From positions 19,298 through 83,297 of IMG/VR virus record IMGVR_UViG_3300039167_000005: DNA of 64,000 bases. One strand, 5' to 3'. The DNA comes from a virus. Its lineage: Duplodnaviria; Caudoviricetes. The translations under genes were made by a program, and so were the position numbers. The notes below the pieces were generated by a model that saw nothing but the letters and a program-made list of their open reading frames with translations, was not told where the DNA came from and ran no database searches. Position 1 is the first letter of the stretch. Every line of letters begins with the position of its first letter. This document shows positions 4,463 through 55,087 of the stretch, piece after piece.

Positions 4463-7012
4463 ATGCAACCTTGGGAAATTACGTGGGATATTGAAGCCAC
4501 AAATCTGCTTAACAGCGAATCTATCGACTACACAGCAATCCCCTATAAACTAAAAGATTCTTTCAAAATCCATTGTATTGTGGTAGGGGTGGTTGTTGGT
4601 GGTAAGGAGTACATGTATGGCTTCCATGACGGCGAGAAGTATATTTTCGACGGACGGGAGCGTAAGGTTACAGTAGAAGGTAAAACTTATGTACTGCCAG
4701 CAGGATATGCACCTGTAGATTACATTCATAAACCCTTGAACGAGTTTCCCAAGTTTGTAGAAAAACTCCCGGAAGGCTCCAAGGTGATTGCACATAACCA
4801 GATTAACTACGACCTACTGGCTGTCAAGCTCTATTGGGGCATCCCCTACGAGGTGGAGCGAGATATGTCTATCGAAGCAGATTTAGGGGACGATTATTGG
4901 GCAGGCAAGAAAGTAGTGTTTGATGACACCCTTGTACGCTCAAAAACCCTAAACCCGGATCGTTATGGTGGACACTCCCTTGATAACCTTTCACAGAAGG
5001 GCGAAGCACAGAAAATTGAATTCCGCAAACATCTTCCTCAAGAGGAACGATTCAAACACTTTGGTCCAGATATGTTGTACTACAACATCTTTGACGTTAA
5101 AGCAAACAAAGGTGTAGCCAAACTCCTAGACGAAGAGATGAAGGCGTACAATTGGAATGAGAAGTGGAATAAAGCGATTAAGTTGGAGAAAGCTGTTGCT
5201 GAACTGATTACTCGTCAGGAGCACCGGGGCTTCAAGTTTGATATTGAACTGGCACAACGGAATCTGGATGAGCTAGATAAGATGATGGAAGAGCGTCGAG
5301 TAAAAATCGAGGCCATTCTTCCTCCGCGTCCAGCTACAAAGAAAGTACAGGGAGATTCCACACCCCCGAAAGGTCAGTTTAAGAAAAATGGGGATTACTC
5401 TGCTAATTTGCTGAAGTTTGCTGATAAAATGGGGGCAGTCATTGAGGATGGAAAGTTTCTCTATGGGGGGAAGGCTTACGATCTTCCACTACCCTTGGAG
5501 CCTCTGATTACAGAGATGAAATCTACGGTGAATGACACTACGCACATCAAGGATTGGCTCGTTTCATTGGGATGGACTCCTTCAGAATACAAAGAGAAAG
5601 ACTTGACTGTTGATACCAAGAAAAATAAACTTTCTCCTGAAAAACTGAAGGCAGCAATTGAGCGGTACGTGGAGCAGACGGTAGACACGAGTTTCTGTAA
5701 GGATCGGTGTGAGCATTTGGGTATCCATGTCGGTCCTCGAATGACACAAGATTCTATTCGACAAAAGCTTTATGCTGAGTTGAACAAGCGCACAGACCGG
5801 AAGGGCGGCATCAAGGTGTTGACCAACCCGAGTTTCACGGTTGGTCAAGAGAAGGAAATTTGTCCCGACCTAGAGAGGTTGGCTAGTAGTTCCGAAGAGT
5901 TGCGTTGCATTACAGACATTACGGAATACTTAACTTATCGGCATCGGCGAAATAGTATTCTGGGTGGTGGTGCGGATTGGGAGGACGATGAAGAGCCTGA
6001 AAAGGGTTATCTTTCCGCTGTCAGGGAGGATGGGCGAATTCCAACCCCAGCGGATACTTGCGGAGCTGCAACTTCGCGCTTCAAGCATCGTTTGGTTACG
6101 AATATTCCACGGGTAACATCCCTTTTTGGGCATAATATGCGGGCTATGTTTGGGGTGGATGATACTTGTTACCAAATCGGCTACGACTTTGATTCCCTCG
6201 AAGCACGGGAAGAGGCAAACTTCTGTTGGCCATTTGAGAGCGGGGAGCGGGAATACTGCCAGTCGCTGTTGTTGGATAAGCCAAACGACGTGCATACAAA
6301 AATGGCACAAAAGATTTCGGCTATTATTGCGAGAGATTTTGCCCGTGGGCCTGCAAAGTCGGTAAAGTATGGTGCAACTTACGGGGCTCAAGGCCCAAAG
6401 ATTGCTAAGACAATTGGTTGTGACGTAGAAACTGGTAACATGATTTTCGAAGCTTTCTGGCAGGCAGCAGCACCGTTGAAGAAGCTGAAAGATGCTCTGA
6501 ATCTAGAGTGGGCTAAGTTTGATAAGAAAAAGATTATCGGTATTGATGGCCGTCTGGTCCCAACCCGTTCAGCCCATGCTATCCTGAACTCGAAGTTCCA
6601 GAGTTCTGGTGTTATCTGCGCGAAGCGAGCTATGGTGATCCATGATCGAAAACTAAAGGCTGCAGGATTGCTGGTAGACTTCTTTGCAGAAGATTGGACC
6701 AAGAAAGATTTTTGCCAACAACTCATTGCATACCATGACGAGGCGCAGCTTGAGGTGAACAAGGCTGCTGTCCAGTTTAAGCGTTTCCCTGAGAAGGAAG
6801 AAGCTCAAGCCTTTAAGGACGAGCGTTTTGAGCAATATGGAGAAATCTGGAGTGACATTAAGGATTCTCCAAAGGGGGGTATATATGTGGCTTATTGTAA
6901 GGGGGGTCAGATGGCTATTGAAGCAGTAAATGAGTCTGGCCGTGATTTTGGTATGGTGATTGACCTGACTGCCGGATATATGGTTGAGAAGTCATGGGCA
7001 GGGTGCCACTAA
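4463..7012 (+). CDS. family A DNA polymerase with 3'-5' exonuclease
   Basis: ExoI WDIEA, ExoII HNQINYD; motif A YDFDSLE, motif B AKSVKYGATYG, motif C YHDE; C-terminal WAGCH. Confidence 0.93.
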   Translation: MQPWEITWDIEATNLLNSESIDYTAIPYKLKDSFKIHCIVVGVVVGGKEYMYGFHDGEKYIFDGRERKVTVEGKTYVLPAGYAPVDYIHKPLNEFPKFVEKLPEGSKVIAHNQINYDLLAVKLYWGIPYEVERDMSIEADLGDDYWAGKKVVFDDTLVRSKTLNPDRYGGHSLDNLSQKGEAQKIEFRKHLPQEERFKHFGPDMLYYNIFDVKANKGVAKLLDEEMKAYNWNEKWNKAIKLEKAVAELITRQEHRGFKFDIELAQRNLDELDKMMEERRVKIEAILPPRPATKKVQGDSTPPKGQFKKNGDYSANLLKFADKMGAVIEDGKFLYGGKAYDLPLPLEPLITEMKSTVNDTTHIKDWLVSLGWTPSEYKEKDLTVDTKKNKLSPEKLKAAIERYVEQTVDTSFCKDRCEHLGIHVGPRMTQDSIRQKLYAELNKRTDRKGGIKVLTNPSFTVGQEKEICPDLERLASSSEELRCITDITEYLTYRHRRNSILGGGADWEDDEEPEKGYLSAVREDGRIPTPADTCGAATSRFKHRLVTNIPRVTSLFGHNMRAMFGVDDTCYQIGYDFDSLEAREEANFCWPFESGEREYCQSLLLDKPNDVHTKMAQKISAIIARDFARGPAKSVKYGATYGAQGPKIAKTIGCDVETGNMIFEAFWQAAAPLKKLKDALNLEWAKFDKKKIIGIDGRLVPTRSAHAILNSKFQSSGVICAKRAMVIHDRKLKAAGLLVDFFAEDWTKKDFCQQLIAYHDEAQLEVNKAAVQFKRFPEKEEAQAFKDERFEQYGEIWSDIKDSPKGGIYVAYCKGGQMAIEAVNESGRDFGMVIDLTAGYMVEKSWAGCH

Positions 7013-19132: not shown

Positions 19133-20387
19133 GTGGCTCTGAAGTATGTAGTAAAGAATGACGGCAGTACTCAAGATTTCTGCCCAGACAAGCTGAATAA
19201 ATGGGCACAGTATGCAACTAAGACTGGGGGTAGTTGGTCAGAGATTGCTCTGGCCACATACAAGCGACTCCCAGAGACAGCGAAAACTTCTGACATCCAC
19301 CAGACAATGATTAATGTCTGTCTAGATAAGGAAGATATTAACTTCTCTCGGATTGCAGCACGGCTGATGGTCGCTACGATTCGTAAGGGCATGGAGCGAC
19401 AGGTTGGTGTTACAGATCGCCACTCTTTTAAAGAAATCTACGATGCCCTGATCTCTAAAAATGTATGGGATTCTGAAACTCTTCCGACTTACAACCCTTT
19501 GTGGGAAAGCTGGTATCAAGAGATTTATAACGAGCAGCTTGAGTATTGGCAGATTGCCCAATGGTACGACAAGTACGCCTTGAAGGTGAACGATGTTGTT
19601 GTAGAGACCCCCCACATTGGTTGCCTCGGGATGGCTCTTGCATTACACGGTGATACACAACTAGCTTTTGATCTGGCGAAGTCTTTGGTTAAAGGTCAGT
19701 ACAACCTTCCGACTCCAGCACTGAACGGGATGCGTAATGGCGATTTCAACACCATCTCATGTTGCGTGATTACTGGCGGCGACAGCATGGAGAGTATCGG
19801 CGTTGCCCAGCACATCGCCTACACCATGACAGCAAAGAAAGCTGGTATTGGTTTGGAGATGGATACTCGGTCGAAGGGTGCGGATGTTAAAGCTGGTAAA
19901 GTGAAGCACCTTGGTAAGCATCCAATCTTCTCTGCTGTTGATAAGCTTGTGAAGGAAATGACTCAGATTACTCGTGGTGGCTCTGCAACTGTTACGTACA
20001 AGTGCATTGACCCAGAAGTGGAGAGCATGATCCTTTGGAAAACTCAGCGAGTAGATATCGAAACTCGATTGGATAAGTTGGATTTCAGCTTCGCATACAA
20101 TGATGCTTTCCTACAGGCTGTAGTAAGTGATGGTGATTGGTATCTGTTCGACTTGAAGGATGCTCCTGAAGTACACAGTGCTTTCTATGTAGAAGATGCA
20201 GATCAATACAAATCTATTGCTGAGAAAGCTGTTAATGCAGGAGTGAAGCATAAAGCAGTAAAGGCTCGGGAGATTTTGAAACTCTTCCTCACCGCTCGAA
20301 ATGAGACTGGTCGGGTGTATAGTATCAACGTAACTCGTGCAAACAAGCACACTCCGTTTGAAGATGTGGTACGACTCTCTAATCTGT
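19133..20387 (+). CDS. nrdA: ribonucleotide reductase class Ia alpha subunit, exon 1
   Basis: LPTPAL, SCC, AGIG, TQITRGGS; ends ...SNL plus the first base of the catalytic Cys codon. Confidence 0.93.
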
Positions 20388-20633
20388 GAAATTTGACGCA
20401 GCGTCACATAGTAATGTGTGAATGAAAATCATGTGAACTCAGGGAAAGCTAAGGGACAGATTGTTCTATGCCAATCCTGATCCAAGCCTCTAACGAGGAA
20501 GGAGCAGAGACTATCCCGCAAGGGAGTAGGTTGTAAGCACAACCGAAGCGCATGACGCCCTTTACAGGGTGATGATATAGTCCGACACTCAGGGAAACCT
20601 GAGAGAAGCCTAGCGAACTTCATAACAGTAAAG
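20388..20633 (+). mobile_element. group I intron (246 nt, no ORF) in nrdA
   Basis: removal restores SNL-C-QEI; P1 CUGU/GCAG with U.G; P10 UUGAC/GUCAA; P7 GACUA/UAGUC; terminal G. Confidence 0.93.
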
Positions 20634-36926: not shown

Positions 36927-37646
36927 CTAATCTACATACATTACACGGTTTTCTTCGGTCAGCTCCATCTGATTAACAGATGAGATGAAGAAGTCATTTG
37001 CTTTGGGCGTAAGAGTGTACCCTTTCAGCGCGTACTTTACAATACGCTTCAACGTCGCGTTCGGATACTCCACGACATTTAGGTTGATGCGCTTATTCAG
37101 TACATCAAAGACGAAGCGCTCATGCTTGTAGAAATTCTCTCCGTCCCAAGCTGCACAACAAGCAGTAATATCGAAAGAAGAAATGAGGTCTTCACAGTCC
37201 ACATACGGTCGCTTATTAATCACTTGAATTTTATATTCATCTTCCATGATGAAAGTGAATAGCTCTCGTTTAGGACATTCAAACACCTTAGTATAACCAA
37301 GAGCTTGAATATCAGCTAGCAGCTTCTCAAGGACACCTTGGTCCGTTACGAACAGGTCATAGTCGCAGATTTCTTCGTTACAAGGATCAACAAGCACCCG
37401 TAGTGCCCCGCCAGCAAGGACCACACTCGGTGACTCTTGAACCAGCTTCTTAATATTGTAAGAGAGTTCTTCTATGTTGTCTTCCATATCAAAGGCGGCG
37501 TTATCAAAGCATTTCTCACAGGTACACGTGATGCCTACTTCCGCCCAACCCGCCTCGGTGGCGGTGTTCGTCCAGTTAATCTCTTCACTGCATACTCGAC
37601 AATGTTTTACTTGGTCCTCTGACTTCAGTTCTTCTTTAATGTTCAT
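36927..37646 (-). CDS. nucleotidyltransferase (CCA/poly(A) polymerase head-like) with N-terminal zinc finger
   Basis: LAGGALR...DYDLF...FDITAC; N-terminal CRVC...CTCEKC. Confidence 0.75.
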   Translation of the reverse strand: MNIKEELKSEDQVKHCRVCSEEINWTNTATEAGWAEVGITCTCEKCFDNAAFDMEDNIEELSYNIKKLVQESPSVVLAGGALRVLVDPCNEEICDYDLFVTDQGVLEKLLADIQALGYTKVFECPKRELFTFIMEDEYKIQVINKRPYVDCEDLISSFDITACCAAWDGENFYKHERFVFDVLNKRINLNVVEYPNATLKRIVKYALKGYTLTPKANDFFISSVNQMELTEENRVMYVD

Positions 37647-41487: not shown

Positions 41488-41886
41488 TTAAAGTTTAAAG
41501 CTAAAACGATCCTTCATCTTCTGAATGGTAGTTTCAGGAACATTGTGAACAGACTTGCTCCCGTGACGATTCTCCACAACGAGAGAAACTACCCTATAAT
41601 CGTACTTTTTAGCAAGATCGAGGTAAGGTTTCAGTTCCTTCTCTGTTGTGAATGTGTTAGAAACAACTACTCCATGACCGAGCATCATACATGCCTCGGT
41701 TTTGTCTTGACATTCGTTATGAGCTTTGTGCAGAAGGGTCGGGTTGAAATTGTAATTACCTCCACGATCATAGAAATAGTCGTCTGCTTCAAACATAGCG
41801 AGGTTCAGACTTTCTGCAAGGTCGGTCGCAAACGTAGTCTTTCCAGCACCGGCAACCCCACGAATCAGATACAAAGTCTTATTCAT
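41488..41886 (-). CDS. AAA_33-type P-loop kinase (Pnk kinase-like)
   Basis: LIRGVAGAGKTT, EADDYF, VSNTF. Confidence 0.8.
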   Translation of the reverse strand: MNKTLYLIRGVAGAGKTTFATDLAESLNLAMFEADDYFYDRGGNYNFNPTLLHKAHNECQDKTEACMMLGHGVVVSNTFTTEKELKPYLDLAKKYDYRVVSLVVENRHGSKSVHNVPETTIQKMKDRFSFKL

Positions 41887-42751
41887 TGAAATACTCCTCA
41901 ATAACCTTACGCCGCTCTTGATCGTTCATTTCTTTCCATTCCTCTTTAGAAAACTTCTGAGTGATGAATTCTGCCACACTCCAGAACTCTTCGTCAAGGG
42001 ATTCTTTGATTAGGGACGGATTATCAAACAGACTATCCACCCGCTTATCTCCCATCCGCATCAAAGCTTTCTTGCTTAGGTAGTAGTTGGACTTAACCTT
42101 CATCAGAATTTCCCACGTAAGCAGGTCGCGGATCATCCAACCTTCTACGTCAACGCCCTTCTTCAGATCGAGAATATTTCTGAACGTTGCTACAGCCCAA
42201 TAAGGGCGCATAAAATCAAATGTATCCGCTACATCATCCAGTGCAGTCTCTGACCACATGTCACCAGATGTCATGCACCGTGCCCCGATTAGGTAGGCGC
42301 CATGCACCTCATCAATGATGTGAGGGTCTTGTTCCACACAAATCTCAAACATGAAGGTAATTTGCGGGAAAGTTGAGAAAAGGAGATTTCCTTCCAGAAG
42401 CCCCCTTGCCCATTTAGCATACTGACTGTCCAGTGTACCTGTGGTGCTAACAATAAGTTCGCCATTCCACCAGCGGGCACAAGCAAGATACCCGTTCACT
42501 TTACGAACAGCGATAACCTCTTTATCAAGAGGGAGGGTAGTTCCATTCTCTTGATAGTTGAATACCTTGGTAAACGGCCAAATCACCTTATTACCTTCAT
42601 CATCCAGAACCATACCGCGAGCATCCAAAAGACGCTCGTCAGTGTGCCAGAGGTTATCCCAGAAGACATTTTTCTTATACTTGTAAATAGAAAGACCATT
42701 GGGGTAGGTTTTCTTTTGTACAAGCTTCTTTTCTACCAGATCGTCGAACAT
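41879..42751 (-). CDS. RNA ligase (T4 Rnl1 family)
   Basis: ARG, PFTKVFN, motif I KVNG, FMFE, EGW, KVKS..Y. Confidence 0.85.
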   Translation of the reverse strand: MFDDLVEKKLVQKKTYPNGLSIYKYKKNVFWDNLWHTDERLLDARGMVLDDEGNKVIWPFTKVFNYQENGTTLPLDKEVIAVRKVNGYLACARWWNGELIVSTTGTLDSQYAKWARGLLEGNLLFSTFPQITFMFEICVEQDPHIIDEVHGAYLIGARCMTSGDMWSETALDDVADTFDFMRPYWAVATFRNILDLKKGVDVEGWMIRDLLTWEILMKVKSNYYLSKKALMRMGDKRVDSLFDNPSLIKESLDEEFWSVAEFITQKFSKEEWKEMNDQERRKVIEEYFNE

Positions 42752-42760
42752 TTAATCCTC

Positions 42761-43303
42761 CTAATGGTGTTTGATAATTTCCTTCTGTAAAAGGATTTCT
42801 TTAATCTCTTCCCAGCTCCACAACATCATATCACCATCTGGGCGAGCGTCAATACCTACGTTCATAGAACGTCCTCGACCAAACTGGTATGAAGCATGTA
42901 CGTGTCCGAATAGATGGAAAGCTCCGTAATTTATCTGCTCCCACTCATAAATAGGATAGTGCAACATCACGACTTTAATTCCATCGACACGAATCGTCTT
43001 GTAATCCTGTCGGGAACGGAAGAACTTCTTGAAGTCAGGACCAGATAGTTGACGGTCATGGTTCCCATAGACTAGGTGAATGTTTCCTTTGAGTTGAGAC
43101 AGGACTTCAATTGTACGCTCCTTTCCAGCAAAGGATACGTCTCCAAGGAGATACACCTCATCACAAGATGATACTTGAGAATTCCAATTGTCAATTAGCT
43201 TCCGGTCATGCTCTTCAAGTGTTCCTTGGATACGGGTGTTTGGGCAGAACTGTTGAATTTTATTATGTCCCCAATGGGTATCTGATACGAACCATTTAGC
43301 CAT
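42761..43303 (-). CDS. calcineurin-like phosphoesterase
   Basis: SDTHWGH, LGD, GNHD, HYP, GHVH. Confidence 0.85.
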   Translation of the reverse strand: MAKWFVSDTHWGHNKIQQFCPNTRIQGTLEEHDRKLIDNWNSQVSSCDEVYLLGDVSFAGKERTIEVLSQLKGNIHLVYGNHDRQLSGPDFKKFFRSRQDYKTIRVDGIKVVMLHYPIYEWEQINYGAFHLFGHVHASYQFGRGRSMNVGIDARPDGDMMLWSWEEIKEILLQKEIIKHH

Positions 43304-43541
43304 TATAAACTCCAAGAAGTAAGGTAGCATTTCCTTTTGTATCCATCTCATATTCCCAAGTTTTACCACGCCTATAGTTGCCAGATTCATACCCTTGCTC
43401 AACATCAGGATCGAACCCTACAACGTAAGCTGTACCTCCCTGCGTGTAGTACGAATCCCCAGAAAAATGCTCAACTACTGTTACGTCTGCATTCTGGTCA
43501 AAATCTTTTAACCACTCAATTAATTCTGATACTTTCATCAA
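43296..43541 (-). CDS. hypothetical protein
   Basis: MKVSELIEWL; coupled ORF. Confidence 0.65.
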   Translation of the reverse strand: MMKVSELIEWLKDFDQNADVTVVEHFSGDSYYTQGGTAYVVGFDPDVEQGYESGNYRRGKTWEYEMDTKGNATLLLGVYNG

Positions 43542-49391: not shown

Positions 49392-49420
49392 TTGACATAT
49401 AACTGAATGTATGCTAAAGT
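49392..49420 (+). promoter_or_regulatory. tRNA operon promoter
   Basis: TTGACA-17-TAAAGT with TG extension. Confidence 0.8.
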
Positions 49421-49427
49421 GGACTCT

Positions 49428-49632
49428 TAACAGATGAGAAAAGCGTTGCTTCGATTTCTCTCCTTCTGACGTTTTCTCCTTGCGTCAGAAACCGCTACCT
49501 AACGGTAGCTCTCCGTCAGCTCCGGGTGTCCTCCTCCCGCTCAGAGCTGGCATTAAGATTCTCGTATTGTAGTTTCATCTATTACGGGAATCTTTCTTTT
49601 AGGGATTGTGAAGTCTTTAAAAGAAAGATTCT
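49428..49632 (+). ncRNA. structured leader or sRNA with CUCC(U) loops
   Basis: six successive hairpins, no ORF with an RBS. Confidence 0.5.
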
Positions 49633-49634
49633 TT

Positions 49635-49709
49635 TGGGAAGTAGCTCAGAGGCAGAGCGATCCGCTGTTAACGGATTGGTCGTAGGTTCGATCCCTACCT
49701 TCCCAGCCA
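49635..49709 (+). tRNA. tRNA-Asn(GTT)
   Basis: cloverleaf, TTCGA T-loop, encoded CCA. Confidence 0.95.
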
Positions 49710-49714
49710 AATAT

Positions 49715-49791
49715 CTTCGTATAATGTCAATCGGTAGACGGCCTGCTTTGGAAGCAGGAGGTTGGAGGTTCGAGTCCTCCTGCGAAGACCA
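49715..49791 (+). tRNA. tRNA-Pro(TGG)
   Basis: C1-G72, A73, encoded CCA. Confidence 0.93.
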
Positions 49792-49796
49792 GATTA

Positions 49797-49872
49797 GCCG
49801 TCATAGCACAGCAGGTAGTGCAGCTCACTTGTAATGAGAAGGTCGAGAGTTCAAATCTTTCTGACGGCACCA
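49797..49872 (+). tRNA. tRNA-Thr(TGT)
   Basis: GCCGTCA/TGACGGC acceptor, CT-TGT-AA loop, CCA. Confidence 0.92.
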
Positions 49873-49875
49873 TAT

Positions 49876-49951
49876 ATTCTCGTAGCTCAGTCTGGATTAG
49901 AGCAAGGAGCTTCTATCTCCTAGGTCGTAGGTTCGAATCCTACCGGGAATG
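49876..49951 (+). tRNA. tRNA-Arg(TCT), CCA not encoded
   Basis: AGGAG-CTTCTAT-CTCCT arm; TTCGAAT T-loop. Confidence 0.9.
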
Positions 49952-49957
49952 AACAAA

Positions 49958-50045
49958 GGATTCCTTTCCTCCCACCGGCATGAACGTAGGCGCGTTTATA
50001 AGGGAGGTTGGTTCGCGTGAGGATCATAACCTCGGGAGTCCACCA
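49958..50045 (+). ncRNA. tRNA-like RNA A (acceptor stem, T-arm, ACCA)
   Basis: GGATTCC/GGAGTCC stem; TGAGG-ATCATAA-CCTCG arm; no D or anticodon arm. Confidence 0.65.
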
Positions 50046-50048
50046 AAT

Positions 50049-50138
50049 ATGACAGCCTCTTTTGAGGATATTCCCGTAAGGGTGTACCGGATGTGTCCCA
50101 CAAGCGTAGAAAAACGATACGAGACGCCTGTCATTCCA
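50049..50138 (+). ncRNA. tRNA-like RNA B (7-bp closing stem, TCCA)
   Basis: ATGACAG/CTGTCAT plus T-CCA; internal hairpins. Confidence 0.5.
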
Positions 50139-50143
50139 ATAAA

Positions 50144-50218
50144 GCGGGTAAGTTGTTTACGGATACACGGCATCCTTCCAAGTTGCAATAGTCAGATCGT
50201 TACTGACTACCCGCTCCA
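50144..50218 (+). tRNA. atypical tRNA-Gly(TCC)
   Basis: GCGGGTA/TACCCGC, U73, CCA, CT-TCC-AA loop; T-loop ATCGTTA. Confidence 0.8.
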
Positions 50219-50248
50219 AGTTCCCGCTCTGCTTATCACATCGGGCTT

Positions 50249-50272
50249 ACCCACTTCTTGTGGGTTTTCTTA
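50249..50272 (+). terminator. terminator of the tRNA operon
   Basis: ACCCAC-TTCTT-GTGGGT followed by a T-run. Confidence 0.7.
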
Positions 50273-50371
50273 TTTCCTCCCGACAAGGAATCGTCTTTGT
50301 TCCACATAGACGTTAAAGAAAGAGTGAGGGTGAAAGTCCCTCAATTTCTATTCAAGAATTCATGGTGAAAT

Positions 50372-52447: not shown

Positions 52448-52549
52448 GTGAGTAAAGAAGAGAAGAAAGTATTTGGGCCTGCTAGTAAAAAGCAGGCCAT
52501 GTTCCTACAAAGTAATGCCGACATCATCGTATATGGCGGAGCCATGGGT
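52448..52549 (+). CDS. terL: terminase large subunit, exon 1 (34 codons; not in the ORF track)
   Basis: GTG start; FGPASKKQAMFL...IIVYGGAMG, first half of Walker A. Confidence 0.9.
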
Positions 52550-52821
52550 AAACTTCACTGCCCCTTCTACAAGAAATTGTAGAAAGATAACTCTTTTAAT
52601 TGCTGGAAACTCCTAACGTAAAGACGAGGACAATCAGCAGCCAAGCCCTAAAGGGAAGGCTCATCGACTATCCCGCGAGGGAGTAAGATCAAGTGATCTG
52701 AAACGGAGAGAGTCCTAACGTAAAGACGAGGACTAAGATATAGTCAGAACTATATGGAGACATATAGCAGAAACAGTTTTTTGTTTCGGGGAGAGATTAA
52801 CGAACTCTCTTGAACATTTTG
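52550..52821 (+). mobile_element. group I intron 1 in terL (272 nt, no ORF)
   Basis: removal gives GGAMG-GGKT; P1 GGGU/GCCC; P7 GACUA/UAGUC; ends in G. Confidence 0.9.
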
Positions 52822-54090
52822 GGTGGTAAGACCTACAACGGTCTTATGCGACATTTACGATGGGTTGATGACCCTCTTTACAGAGGGTATGTGATTCGTA
52901 AACACCAGACAACTCTGGCTAAAGCCGGTGGTGTTATCGACGAATCTAAAGGTTTATATAAAGACGTATATCCAGATGCTGTATATAAGGCTAAGGAAAT
53001 GCGTTGGATCTTCCCTTCAGGTGGTCAAGTTGCCTTTGGGCACCTAGATACCGAGGAAGATGCTGAGAAATATCGTGGGTTACAGATCAGTGCTGCAATG
53101 CTGGATGAAAGTACGCAATTTTCTGAGGAGAACGTGCTTGTCGTTTTATCCCGTCTTCGTACACAAGCGAAGATGAAACCTTCGCTTTGGCTAACTTGCA
53201 ACCCCTCCCCAACATCATTTATTAGACGCTGGATTGATTGGTGGATTATCCCACAAGGCGAAGAGAACTCTGGTCGCCCCGACCCAGAACGAGACGGTAA
53301 GATTCGTTGGTTCATTCGTGATTCTAGTGAAATGATCTGGGCTGACACGAGAGAAGAACTCCTAGAGAAGTACGGTAATCGTGATCTGAATGGTAATCTT
53401 ATCCCAGATGAGTCAGAACATCAACATTGCCGACCACTTTCTTTGCAGTTTATCAGTGCAACCATCTTCGATAACCCTCCGCTGCTTAGGGCAAACCCCG
53501 GCTATTTGGCAAACCTTCAAGGCTTGAAACGAGTTAAGAGGGAGCGCGACCTCTACGGGAGTTGGGACGTAAAAGAGGAGGTTTCAAATTTCTTTCAGAA
53601 GGATTGGACACTCCCTGTAAAGTACCACGAGCAAGAGTTTGTGTCCTATGTTCGTGCGTGGGACCTTGCTGGAAGTAAGCCCTCAGAGGTAAATACAAAT
53701 CCAGATTTTTCTGTCGGCGTTTTGATGGCCCGCACAAAGCAAGGTAGGTATGTAATCATTGATGTCGAAAGGTTCCGCGAAAACTACGGGACTGTAATGC
53801 AGCGTATCATTGATTGTGCCCGAAAAGACCCTTATGGAACCAAGATTCTCTTGCCGAAGGAGCCGGGACAAGCAGGTAAGATTGCAGCCGGCGCTCAATT
53901 GAAGGCTTTGCAGTATGAAGGGTTTACCCCTGCTTTTATGGGGACGGGGAGTAAGAGTAAAGTCTTACGTTTTCAACCGTTTGCTACTGCTGCCGAGATG
54001 GGGCTTATTGATTATATCGAGGGTCCTTGGAATGATACTTTCTTTGATGAACTCGAACAGTTCACAGGAGAAAGGAAGAATAAAGACGAT
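52822..54090 (+). CDS. terL: terminase large subunit, exon 2
   Basis: GGKT, Walker B AMLDESTQ, TCNP, RAWDLA, C-terminal ...KNKDD. Confidence 0.93.
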
Positions 54091-55087
54091 TGACAAACTG
54101 GTCGTCTATAAACTCCTCTAATTCGGGGAACATCTCTATAAGAATTTAAAGAGACAATCCCGAGCGAAGCCTAGAAATAGGAACGTGTAACGACTATTAT
54201 GTAGGGTCAAGTGGCCCGAAACGGGGAGCACGCTTTAGAGCGTGAAGAGATAGTCTGCTCTGCATAGCGATATGCAGCACCCACTAAGTTAATAATATAG
54301 GAGAATTTCTATGGGACGTAAAGCTCTAACTGTAATTGAAATTGGCGATGTGATGCCCACTAACAAGTACGGAGATGTCCGGGTTGTTGAAAAGCAAGGT
54401 CAAAAGTTTCTGGTGTCTTTTGTAGATTCTGGTTACGAGACTCTGGTTCACAGGGTAAACCTAATAGCTGGTAAAGTCAAAGATTACACAAAACCTCACC
54501 ACGCGTTGAAAGACTGGGAAGATTGCCAAGAGCCGGGAATCTCCAACAGTGGACACAAGTTTACCATCATCAAGAAGAACGCCAAGAAGTGTATCGTTAA
54601 GTTCAATGATACAGGCTACATTCGAGAGTGTTTTATTGAAAACGTGAAAGTTGGTAAAGTCTCTGACCCATACAGCAAGAGTTTCCTTGGTATAGGTTAT
54701 CTTGGAGAGTATTCCAAATCAAAGCCTTACTGGAAACAAGCTAAACAACTCTGGAGCAACATGATGAAGCGTTGCTATAACCCTAAAGATGACAAAGGGT
54801 ACTACGGACGTTGTTTTGTCGATGATCGCTGGAAGTGTTTTGCTAACTTCCTAGAAGATTTGCCGAAGTTAGAGGGTTTTGATGATTGGCTTCTTGGTTT
54901 TGAGGAAGGTAACACTAAGTACAATCTAGAGAAAGACTTGAAGATTCCGGGGAATGACACGTATTCCCGAGAAGCTTGTATGTTCTTAAGTGAACATATT
55001 AACAAAGGTGCTACATCCCGTAATAACTACGGTAGAGATTAAAGTGGGTGGTCAAGGAATTAACGAGCCTTGATTAACAAGTAAATG
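54091..55087 (+). mobile_element. group I intron 2 in terL (997 nt) carrying an endonuclease
   Basis: removal gives KDD-QVDA; P1 AGACGAU/GUCGUCU; P7 GACUA/UAGUC; CACCCACU/AGUGGGUG loops out the ORF; ends in G. Confidence 0.93.
54311..55042 (+). CDS. intron-encoded HNH-like homing endonuclease
   Basis: W..MMKRCY...W.CFANF...LEKD...YS...C.F.....N; duplicated N-terminal domain. Confidence 0.8.
   Translation: MGRKALTVIEIGDVMPTNKYGDVRVVEKQGQKFLVSFVDSGYETLVHRVNLIAGKVKDYTKPHHALKDWEDCQEPGISNSGHKFTIIKKNAKKCIVKFNDTGYIRECFIENVKVGKVSDPYSKSFLGIGYLGEYSKSKPYWKQAKQLWSNMMKRCYNPKDDKGYYGRCFVDDRWKCFANFLEDLPKLEGFDDWLLGFEEGNTKYNLEKDLKIPGNDTYSREACMFLSEHINKGATSRNNYGRD

Follow-up and report, generated by a model that had tools for sequence, protein, structure and literature searches.

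An anticodon-disabled copy of a rewired tRNA-Tyr gene in a phage tRNA operon

According to a 2024 paper (PMC11551756), all known bacterial tRNAs are cloverleaves, and natural armless tRNAs are confined to mitochondria. The D-armless mitochondrial tRNAs and the engineered mini HisT (PMC11551756, PMC7609411) have a non-cloverleaf D region, as does the phage tRNA family described here; those molecules lack a D helix, whereas in the phage family the helix is rebuilt from non-adjacent strands. We found no description in the literature of a tRNA wired in this way. The family, whose total length is that of class II tRNAs, shares with canonical class II tRNA-Tyr(GUA) a body of 85 nt plus CCA, a 7-bp acceptor stem, A73, the CCA end and a 5-bp T stem with a 7-nt loop, and its intact members also share the 5-bp anticodon stem, the loop CUGUAAA and a long variable region. 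It differs from that tRNA in lacking a D hairpin, positions 11-16 pairing instead into the variable arm as a pseudoknot, and the copy studied here differs further in having no anticodon loop and in carrying an A54/U58 T-loop.

The rnaC and rnaD RNAs of phage T4 (species 1 and species 2) are comparable in position: they are small RNAs without an anticodon and without known function, located just after tRNA-Arg at the distal end of the tRNA cluster with few-nt spacers, and rnaC has a T-arm at its 3' end. Unlike the element described here, they measure 119 and 139 nt and are not known as derivatives of a specific tRNA. tRNA pseudogenes, mascRNA and the tRNA-like domain of tmRNA are similar in concept only, each combining an acceptor/T-arm half and CCA with the lack of a functional anticodon.

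The window analysed in this study is a 64,000-nt stretch of an 83-kb contig of a Caudoviricetes virus (IMG/VR record IMGVR_UViG_3300039167_000005, positions 19,298 to 83,297). In its portal protein the phage shares 45% identity with Pseudomonas phage vB_PsaM_M1, the portal proteins of other ~90 kb myoviruses being more distant. An RNA operon occupies 49392-50265 on the + strand, where a promoter is followed by a 205-nt leader, four canonical tRNAs, the units A, B and C, and a terminator-like hairpin. RNA A, the subject of this analysis, is the unit at 49958-50045. The operon is composed as follows:

49392-49420, + strand: predicted sigma-70-like promoter (TTGACA, 17-nt spacer, TAAAGT; 10/12 consensus matches)
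49428-49632, + strand: structured leader RNA with CU-rich (anti-Shine-Dalgarno-like) hairpin loops; fold z-score -8.1
49635-49952, + strand: canonical tRNA genes Asn(GUU), Pro(UGG), Thr(UGU) and Arg(UCU), called by ARAGORN and by Rfam RF00005 at 57-68 bits
49958-50045, + strand: RNA A, 88 nt with its encoded ACCA; a rewired tRNA-Tyr gene copy whose anticodon is disabled, identified through its homologs
50049-50138, + strand: RNA B, the next operon unit, 100% identical in contigs L029 and L031
50144-50218, + strand: unit C, tRNA-Gly(UCC)-like with T-loop AUCGUUA; matches the tRNA-half descriptor given below, and its L020 homolog is called as tRNA-Gly by ARAGORN
50249-50265, + strand: terminator-like hairpin and T-rich tail at the end of the operon, conserved in relatives

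The leader is 96.5-98.5% identical across relatives, where the flanking genes reach only 83-92%, and it gives a weak, sub-threshold match to Rfam ar14. The homologs of RNA B in L020 (~108-200) and L022 (3056-3143) end without CCA, so a CCA end is not a conserved property of that unit. A 109-codon open reading frame (49980-50309) overlaps RNA A and runs on through RNA B and unit C; it has no Pfam match. No second tRNA-Tyr was found in the same contig. Elsewhere in the window, three group I introns scored above the Rfam gathering threshold (20378-20604, 52540-52767 and 54035-54277), two of them in the terminase region. On the - strand, 41488-43405 holds genes for an RNA ligase resembling Rnl1 (phrog_562, E = 3e-50), for a P-loop kinase (AAA_33, with a weak polynucleotide kinase match) and for a metallophosphoesterase, and a nucleotidyltransferase-like gene lies near this cluster at 36927-37646 (-). 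Together these genes probably constitute a tRNA repair kit.

We scanned the whole window on both strands with a descriptor consisting of a 7-bp stem, NCCA and an abutting T-arm of 5 bp and 7 nt. The results showed five matches on the + strand, every one of them within the operon and including RNA A and unit C, and a single match on the - strand, which is a chance hit. Simulated sequence gave a mean of 0.43 matches per 64 kb over both strands; the five operon matches against this expectation indicate that the acceptor/T-arm/CCA module is not a product of chance. The original prediction, made from the letters of this DNA, had proposed a tRNA-shaped RNA gene belonging to the tRNA operon, and both the spacing (6 nt between the tRNA-Arg discriminator and the start of RNA A) and the descriptor statistics bear this out; all the complementary segments that it listed are present. 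Its expectation that tRNA scanners would miss the gene was also borne out: ARAGORN made no call on RNA A, and the Rfam tRNA model RF00005 gave no match even at E<=10. The intact alleles in L029 and L034 likewise went unmatched by RF00005 (29-bit cloverleaf cut-off) and by ARAGORN, and every family member tested was undetected by the two programs.

In predicted folding of RNA A, the acceptor stem and an apical hairpin were robust, while the T-arm and the 6-bp helix faced competing pairings, and the tRNA-like fold lay 1.1 kcal/mol above the minimum free energy. RNA A is a real tRNA-shaped gene within the phage tRNA operon. Its position behind the operon promoter suggests that it is still transcribed, and its intact acceptor/T half and ACCA end make continued excision by RNase P probable.

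A covariance model built from the window's copy alone (R1) was applied to contigs reached through relatives of the upstream 60-aa protein. R1 matched an allele, V1, in L031, L032 and L033 (98 bits), a second allele, V2, in L028, L029 and L030 (86 bits), and a divergent copy in L034 (52 bits). DNA patterns that omitted the anticodon region recovered two more copies on the unrelated viral contigs L044 and L045 (61 kb and 424 kb), and a further pattern yielded two more types, L048 and L054, on contigs of up to 461 kb. The family thus comprises eight distinct sequences, the window's copy and seven homologs, and some of the contigs exceed 200 kb. Thirteen further pattern matches (L046, L047, L049-L053, L056, L058 and L060-L063) were discarded as chance.

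V2, L034, L044, L045, L048 and L054 all carry a 5-bp stem with the 7-nt loop CUGUAAA, placed 1 nt after the 6-bp helix. By standard anticodon-loop numbering, CUGUAAA presents the anticodon GUA, that of tyrosine. Both the loop and the 5-bp stem are present in all homologs that were ascertained without reference to the anticodon loop (L029-type, L034, L044 and L045), and in the five homologs from outside the phage's closest relatives the loop is CUGUAAA in 5/5. The tyrosine ancestry of RNA A is shown by these sequences.

Several other searches returned no homolog. When the operon was compared by BLASTN with 50,697 phage records, the canonical tRNAs were the sole matches. A set of four DNA patterns, three run against viral contigs and one against genome contigs, found no RNA A homolog, and a metagenome scan with the terminase produced one 1.7-kb contig and one distant relative, again with no RNA A homolog. 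Six relatives reached mostly via the downstream 268-aa protein (G001, L016, L017, L020, L022 and L025) contained none by blastn, nhmmer or the covariance model. The RNA A gene is absent from these six and from L038. G001 is the closest IMG/VR relative (terminase 98% identical), and there an HNH gene replaces the 3' portion of tRNA-Arg together with units A, B and C.

The fold of the family was read from the eight sequences. Its elements in RNA A are as follows, with pairing counted over all sequences:

49958-49964, + strand: 5' strand of the acceptor stem, pairing with 50035-50041 (7 bp, one G-U; 55/56 cells paired)
49968-49973, + strand: 5' strand of the D-type helix, pairing with 50002-50007 (48/48 cells paired; 4/6 pairs covary)
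49975-49990, + strand: remnant anticodon arm, with stem 49975-49979/49986-49990 (one G.A mismatch) and the 6-nt loop AUGAAC at 49980-49985
49991-49994, + strand: 5' strand of the variable-arm stem, pairing with 50014-50017 (4 bp; 30/32 cells paired; 2/4 pairs covary)
50002-50007, + strand: 3' strand of the D-type helix, inside the variable arm, pairing with 49968-49973
50008-50013, + strand: UUGGUU linker, with GGUU in 7/8 sequences
50014-50017, + strand: 3' strand of the variable-arm stem, pairing with 49991-49994 and predicted to cross the D-type helix
50018-50034, + strand: T-arm abutting the acceptor 3' strand, with stem 50018-50022/50030-50034 (5 bp) and loop AUCAUAA (A54/U58)
50035-50045, + strand: 3' strand of the acceptor stem, discriminator A and encoded CCA, supported by complementarity, the descriptor and the eight-sequence pair table

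Since the 4-bp stem crosses the 6-bp helix, within which the anticodon arm lies, the conserved pairings make a pseudoknot and not a cloverleaf. This design has no D hairpin; the strand following U8-U10 pairs into the long variable arm, giving a 6-bp D-type helix that would stack on the anticodon stem, with the short variable stem crossing the helix. Family members keep the acceptor stem, the T-arm, A73-CCA and a normal anticodon arm. The UUGGUU linker probably takes the place of the GG by which a D-loop touches the T-loop.

Support for the individual stems came from covariation. The anticodon stem was paired in 39/40 cells with 4/5 pairs covarying, and the T stem in 38/40 cells with 3/5 covarying; in the acceptor stem 1/7 pairs covaried, pair 3:70 being A-U, G-C or U-A, and the U.G pair of RNA A is U-A in the other alleles. 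In alignment A2 of the four closest sequences, 98% of cells were paired and 6 pairs had changed on both sides; the anticodon-type stem (49975-49979/49986-49990) was 95% paired there with two covarying pairs. As controls for A2, 1/500 shuffles matched and slid versions were 39-57% paired. RNAalifold, given no structure, recovered the same nested helices, the anticodon stem included.

These helices revise the arrangement first proposed, in which one long arm stood in place of the D and anticodon arms: the region forms a D-type helix and an anticodon arm instead. The apical hairpin of that earlier model can form, as a 7-bp stem with a 6-nt loop, but it is only 75% paired in the homologs and shows no covariation. 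Covariation of the stems among homologs, named in advance as a check, was accordingly found for the D-type, anticodon and variable stems and not for the apical hairpin. In RNA A itself, 4/5 pairs of the anticodon stem are kept and one is G.A, and the alternative 7-bp apical hairpin is favoured thermodynamically. Three further assignments were tried and rejected. Threading RNA A onto a class II cloverleaf failed in that no D hairpin could be drawn; a G3:U70 alanine identity is contradicted by the A-U at position 3:70; and an 8-nt quadruplet-decoding loop in the apical hairpin had no support from the homologs.

The remodelled 6-nt loop AUGAAC was common to the window's copy and V1 (L031/L032/L033) and occurred in no other member. 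It takes the place of CUGUAAA, so the original prediction was right that this copy has no anticodon. Of the events that separate the window's copy from V2, the closest intact allele, 7 fall within the 17 nt of the anticodon arm and a single one in the remaining 72 nt (Fisher p = 2e-5). Two of the seven arm events changed both sides of the closing pair, from A-U to C-G, and three turned CUGUAAA into AUGAAC through the loss of one base and two substitutions. When a donor for the remodelled loop was sought, nothing beyond chance-level 11-12-mers turned up. With the GUA in its 7-nt loop lost, RNA A is expected neither to read tyrosine codons (UAY) any longer nor to be charged with tyrosine. U35 is an identity element for TyrRS, and it is missing from the RNA A loop.

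V1 has the identical remodelled loop, which places the remodelling before the split between V1 and the window's copy. After the split, the anticodon stem of the window's copy acquired its G.A mismatch, and its acceptor stem a harmless change from U-A to U.G. In V1 a C.C mismatch arose in the variable stem, and tandem duplication of 6 nt expanded the T-loop to 13 nt. The anticodon stem of V1 is a perfect 5 bp. Outside the arm, the acceptor stem, D-type helix, variable stem, T-arm and ACCA of the window's copy are all intact. Between the two alleles that lack the anticodon there are 4 differing sites in 88 nt, as against 6 in 523 nt for the leader, three tRNAs and RNA B on the same two contigs. 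Four contigs or more (G000 and three others), drawn from no fewer than four samples, carry the anticodon-less allele. Intact and anticodon-less alleles share metagenomes, namely L029 with L031 (JGI 3300038536) and L030 with L033 (ENA ERZ27298585), and their sets of tRNA modules differ.

The T-loop of RNA A is 7 nt long and retains U55 and C56; it has A54/U58, versus U54/A58 in distant members, where the distant homologs have canonical T-loops starting UUC. The inversion noted in RNA A and its Gly-like neighbour is therefore real in both units, but it is not conserved in the family. A54/U58 T-loops were observed in the window at 50023-50029 and 50196-50202, in L034 (~1785-1791), in L003 (~5560-5566) and in rewired Arg units; no fewer than five distinct tRNA or tRNA-like genes of the clade have them, all with different T stems. 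U54/A58 is retained in the canonical tRNAs of the same operon. The A54/U58 T-loops look like parallel change, not gene conversion.

Across relatives, the operon is a mosaic of RNA modules that varies by contig, with endonuclease genes among them. These are three different genes, encoding an HNH protein (G001; L003:5870-6420), a DUF559/Vsr-like protein (L016:631-1311) and a PD-(D/E)XK protein (L038:5768-6208), each of which replaces or splits tRNA units, and segB of the T4 tRNA cluster resembles them. The RNA modules of the operon may be homogenised by recombination near such homing endonuclease genes. Unit C is intact in the window and in L020. It has been eroded by short-repeat deletions in L029 (~908-962), L031 (~5948-5985) and L017 (5312-5343), and in L016 it is cut by the DUF559 endonuclease gene (1302-1338).

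A second rewired tRNA, tRNA-Arg(UCU), was present in six relatives (L003:5634-5716, L016:308-390, L017:5188-5270, L022:2966-3048, L025:4108-4191 and L029:629-711), in L029 immediately upstream of the intact RNA A allele. It has no D hairpin, 97.5% of its cells are paired and 12/20 pairs covary; ARAGORN misses it, and its Rfam score of 28.4 bits falls just below the cut-off. It resembles the tyrosine family in having an outer helix round the anticodon arm and a GG linker followed by the T-arm, and differs in its 3-bp outer helix, the lack of a variable stem and pseudoknot, and the anticodon UCU; R1 did not match it. In L038 (5560-5700), a recombination joint lies in the anticodon loop of this tRNA-Arg, where a motif is duplicated and a second, divergent Arg allele follows. 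Two other units of the relatives are unusual. The one at L025:3043-3170 has canonical acceptor, D and T arms with an insert of ~65 nt between the anticodon-stem strands and received no ARAGORN call; a group I intron was rejected for this insert, ~65 nt being too short. The other is a tRNA-like unit directly after the leader (L003:5426-5506, L016:147-227, L022:2885-2957) with a canonical T-arm and a loop without U33, which ARAGORN misses or assigns an undefined anticodon.

We read RNA A as a transcribed, non-decoding relic of a rewired tRNA-Tyr that is en route to loss, with a probability of roughly 0.6. This reading is favoured by the disruptive later changes in both anticodon-less alleles, the absence of the gene in close relatives and the decay of unit C. 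The family fold and the loss of the anticodon loop are, like the ancestry, shown, and on our best reading a loss of decoding, followed by a relaxation of constraint, accounts for the pattern better than a designed mimic does; statistically, the case for such relaxation is weak, because only four lesions postdate the change. The original prediction had held RNA A to be selected rather than decayed, a view that its descent from tRNA-Tyr(GUA), the later helix-breaking changes and the close relatives without the gene do not support. Counting against the relic are the clustered changes in the arm and the compensated closing pair, which plain neutral decay does not predict; they might stem either from selection acting on the arm or from one complex mutation. 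The undamaged body outside the arm and the persistence of the anticodon-less allele across contigs and samples also count against it. A tentative alternative, which we think unlikely though the strongest of those considered, is that RNA A is a neofunctionalised tRNA mimic whose tRNA body was kept for use without decoding after the arm was remodelled. As such it might act on host factors that bind tRNA, serving as decoy or sponge (candidates are anticodon nucleases, modification enzymes, TyrRS, the CCA enzyme and EF-Tu), or else be an RNase P/3'-end processing signal that frees tRNA-Arg and RNA B. The confinement of most changes to the anticodon arm with the rest near-identical (p = 2e-5) speaks for this, as do the compensated closing pair, the perfect stem of V1 and the presence of the allele in G000 and three further contigs; the Rnl1-like RNA ligase, kinase, phosphoesterase and nucleotidyltransferase suggest pressure from tRNA-cleaving defences, and T4 keeps two non-tRNA stable RNAs at the same position after tRNA-Arg. 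However, the 13-nt T-loop and variable-stem mismatch of V1 and the G.A of the window's copy harm the very body that a mimic needs, the apical hairpin shows no covariation, and close relatives dispense with the gene. The more specific proposal, a selected non-decoding mimic made by targeted remodelling of the arm and kept by a phage with a tRNA repair kit, is slightly more doubtful; if true, a natural tRNA gene would have turned into a tRNA-shaped regulator beside a still-decoding allele in the same communities. A secondary role of RNA A as decoy, sponge or processing signal is possible.

The other explanations are far less probable than a mimic. That RNA A still decodes through its abnormal 6-nt loop, in which U-G-A-A could read Phe-type codons or promote frameshifting, is very improbable: AUGAAC does keep a U followed by GAA, and the V1 stem is an intact 5 bp, but the loop has no position 38, has C in place of purine 37 and has lost U35, the window's copy has a stem mismatch, and no other family member has such a loop. 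Less credible again is the idea that RNA A has no tRNA gene in its ancestry and is an independent small stable RNA like species 1 and species 2 of T4 (rnaC/rnaD). The operon position is shared, T4 tRNA-Arg, rnaD and rnaC being separated by 1-6 nt spacers, and T4 rnaC ends in a canonical T-arm; against this, tRNA ancestry is evident from direct homologs whose Tyr anticodon arm is intact, and R1 had no match in the T4 locus (L013). Neither R1 against L013 nor direct comparison revealed any sequence or model similarity between RNA A and rnaC/rnaD, which have gene order alone in common. The least credible suggestion of all is that RNA A is no RNA gene and represents a chance fold or part of the 109-codon open reading frame that overlaps it. 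That frame lacks a Pfam match and extends across RNA B and unit C, both of which are conserved elsewhere, in different arrangements, as RNA modules of their own, and the descriptor statistics and covariation exclude chance.

The relic reading carries a caution for annotation: a tRNA-like RNA without an anticodon can be a recently inactivated tRNA and not a designed mimic. What the window adds to the family is an anticodon-disabled allele, and to the phage clade the A54/U58 T-loops in several of its tRNA genes. Disabled and intact alleles that are otherwise near-identical, found in the same metagenomes, amount to a natural experiment on the function of the tRNA body. Genes that standard finders miss bear on the number of unannotated phage tRNAs, and non-cloverleaf phage tRNAs bear on the structural freedom that the bacterial translation machinery tolerates.
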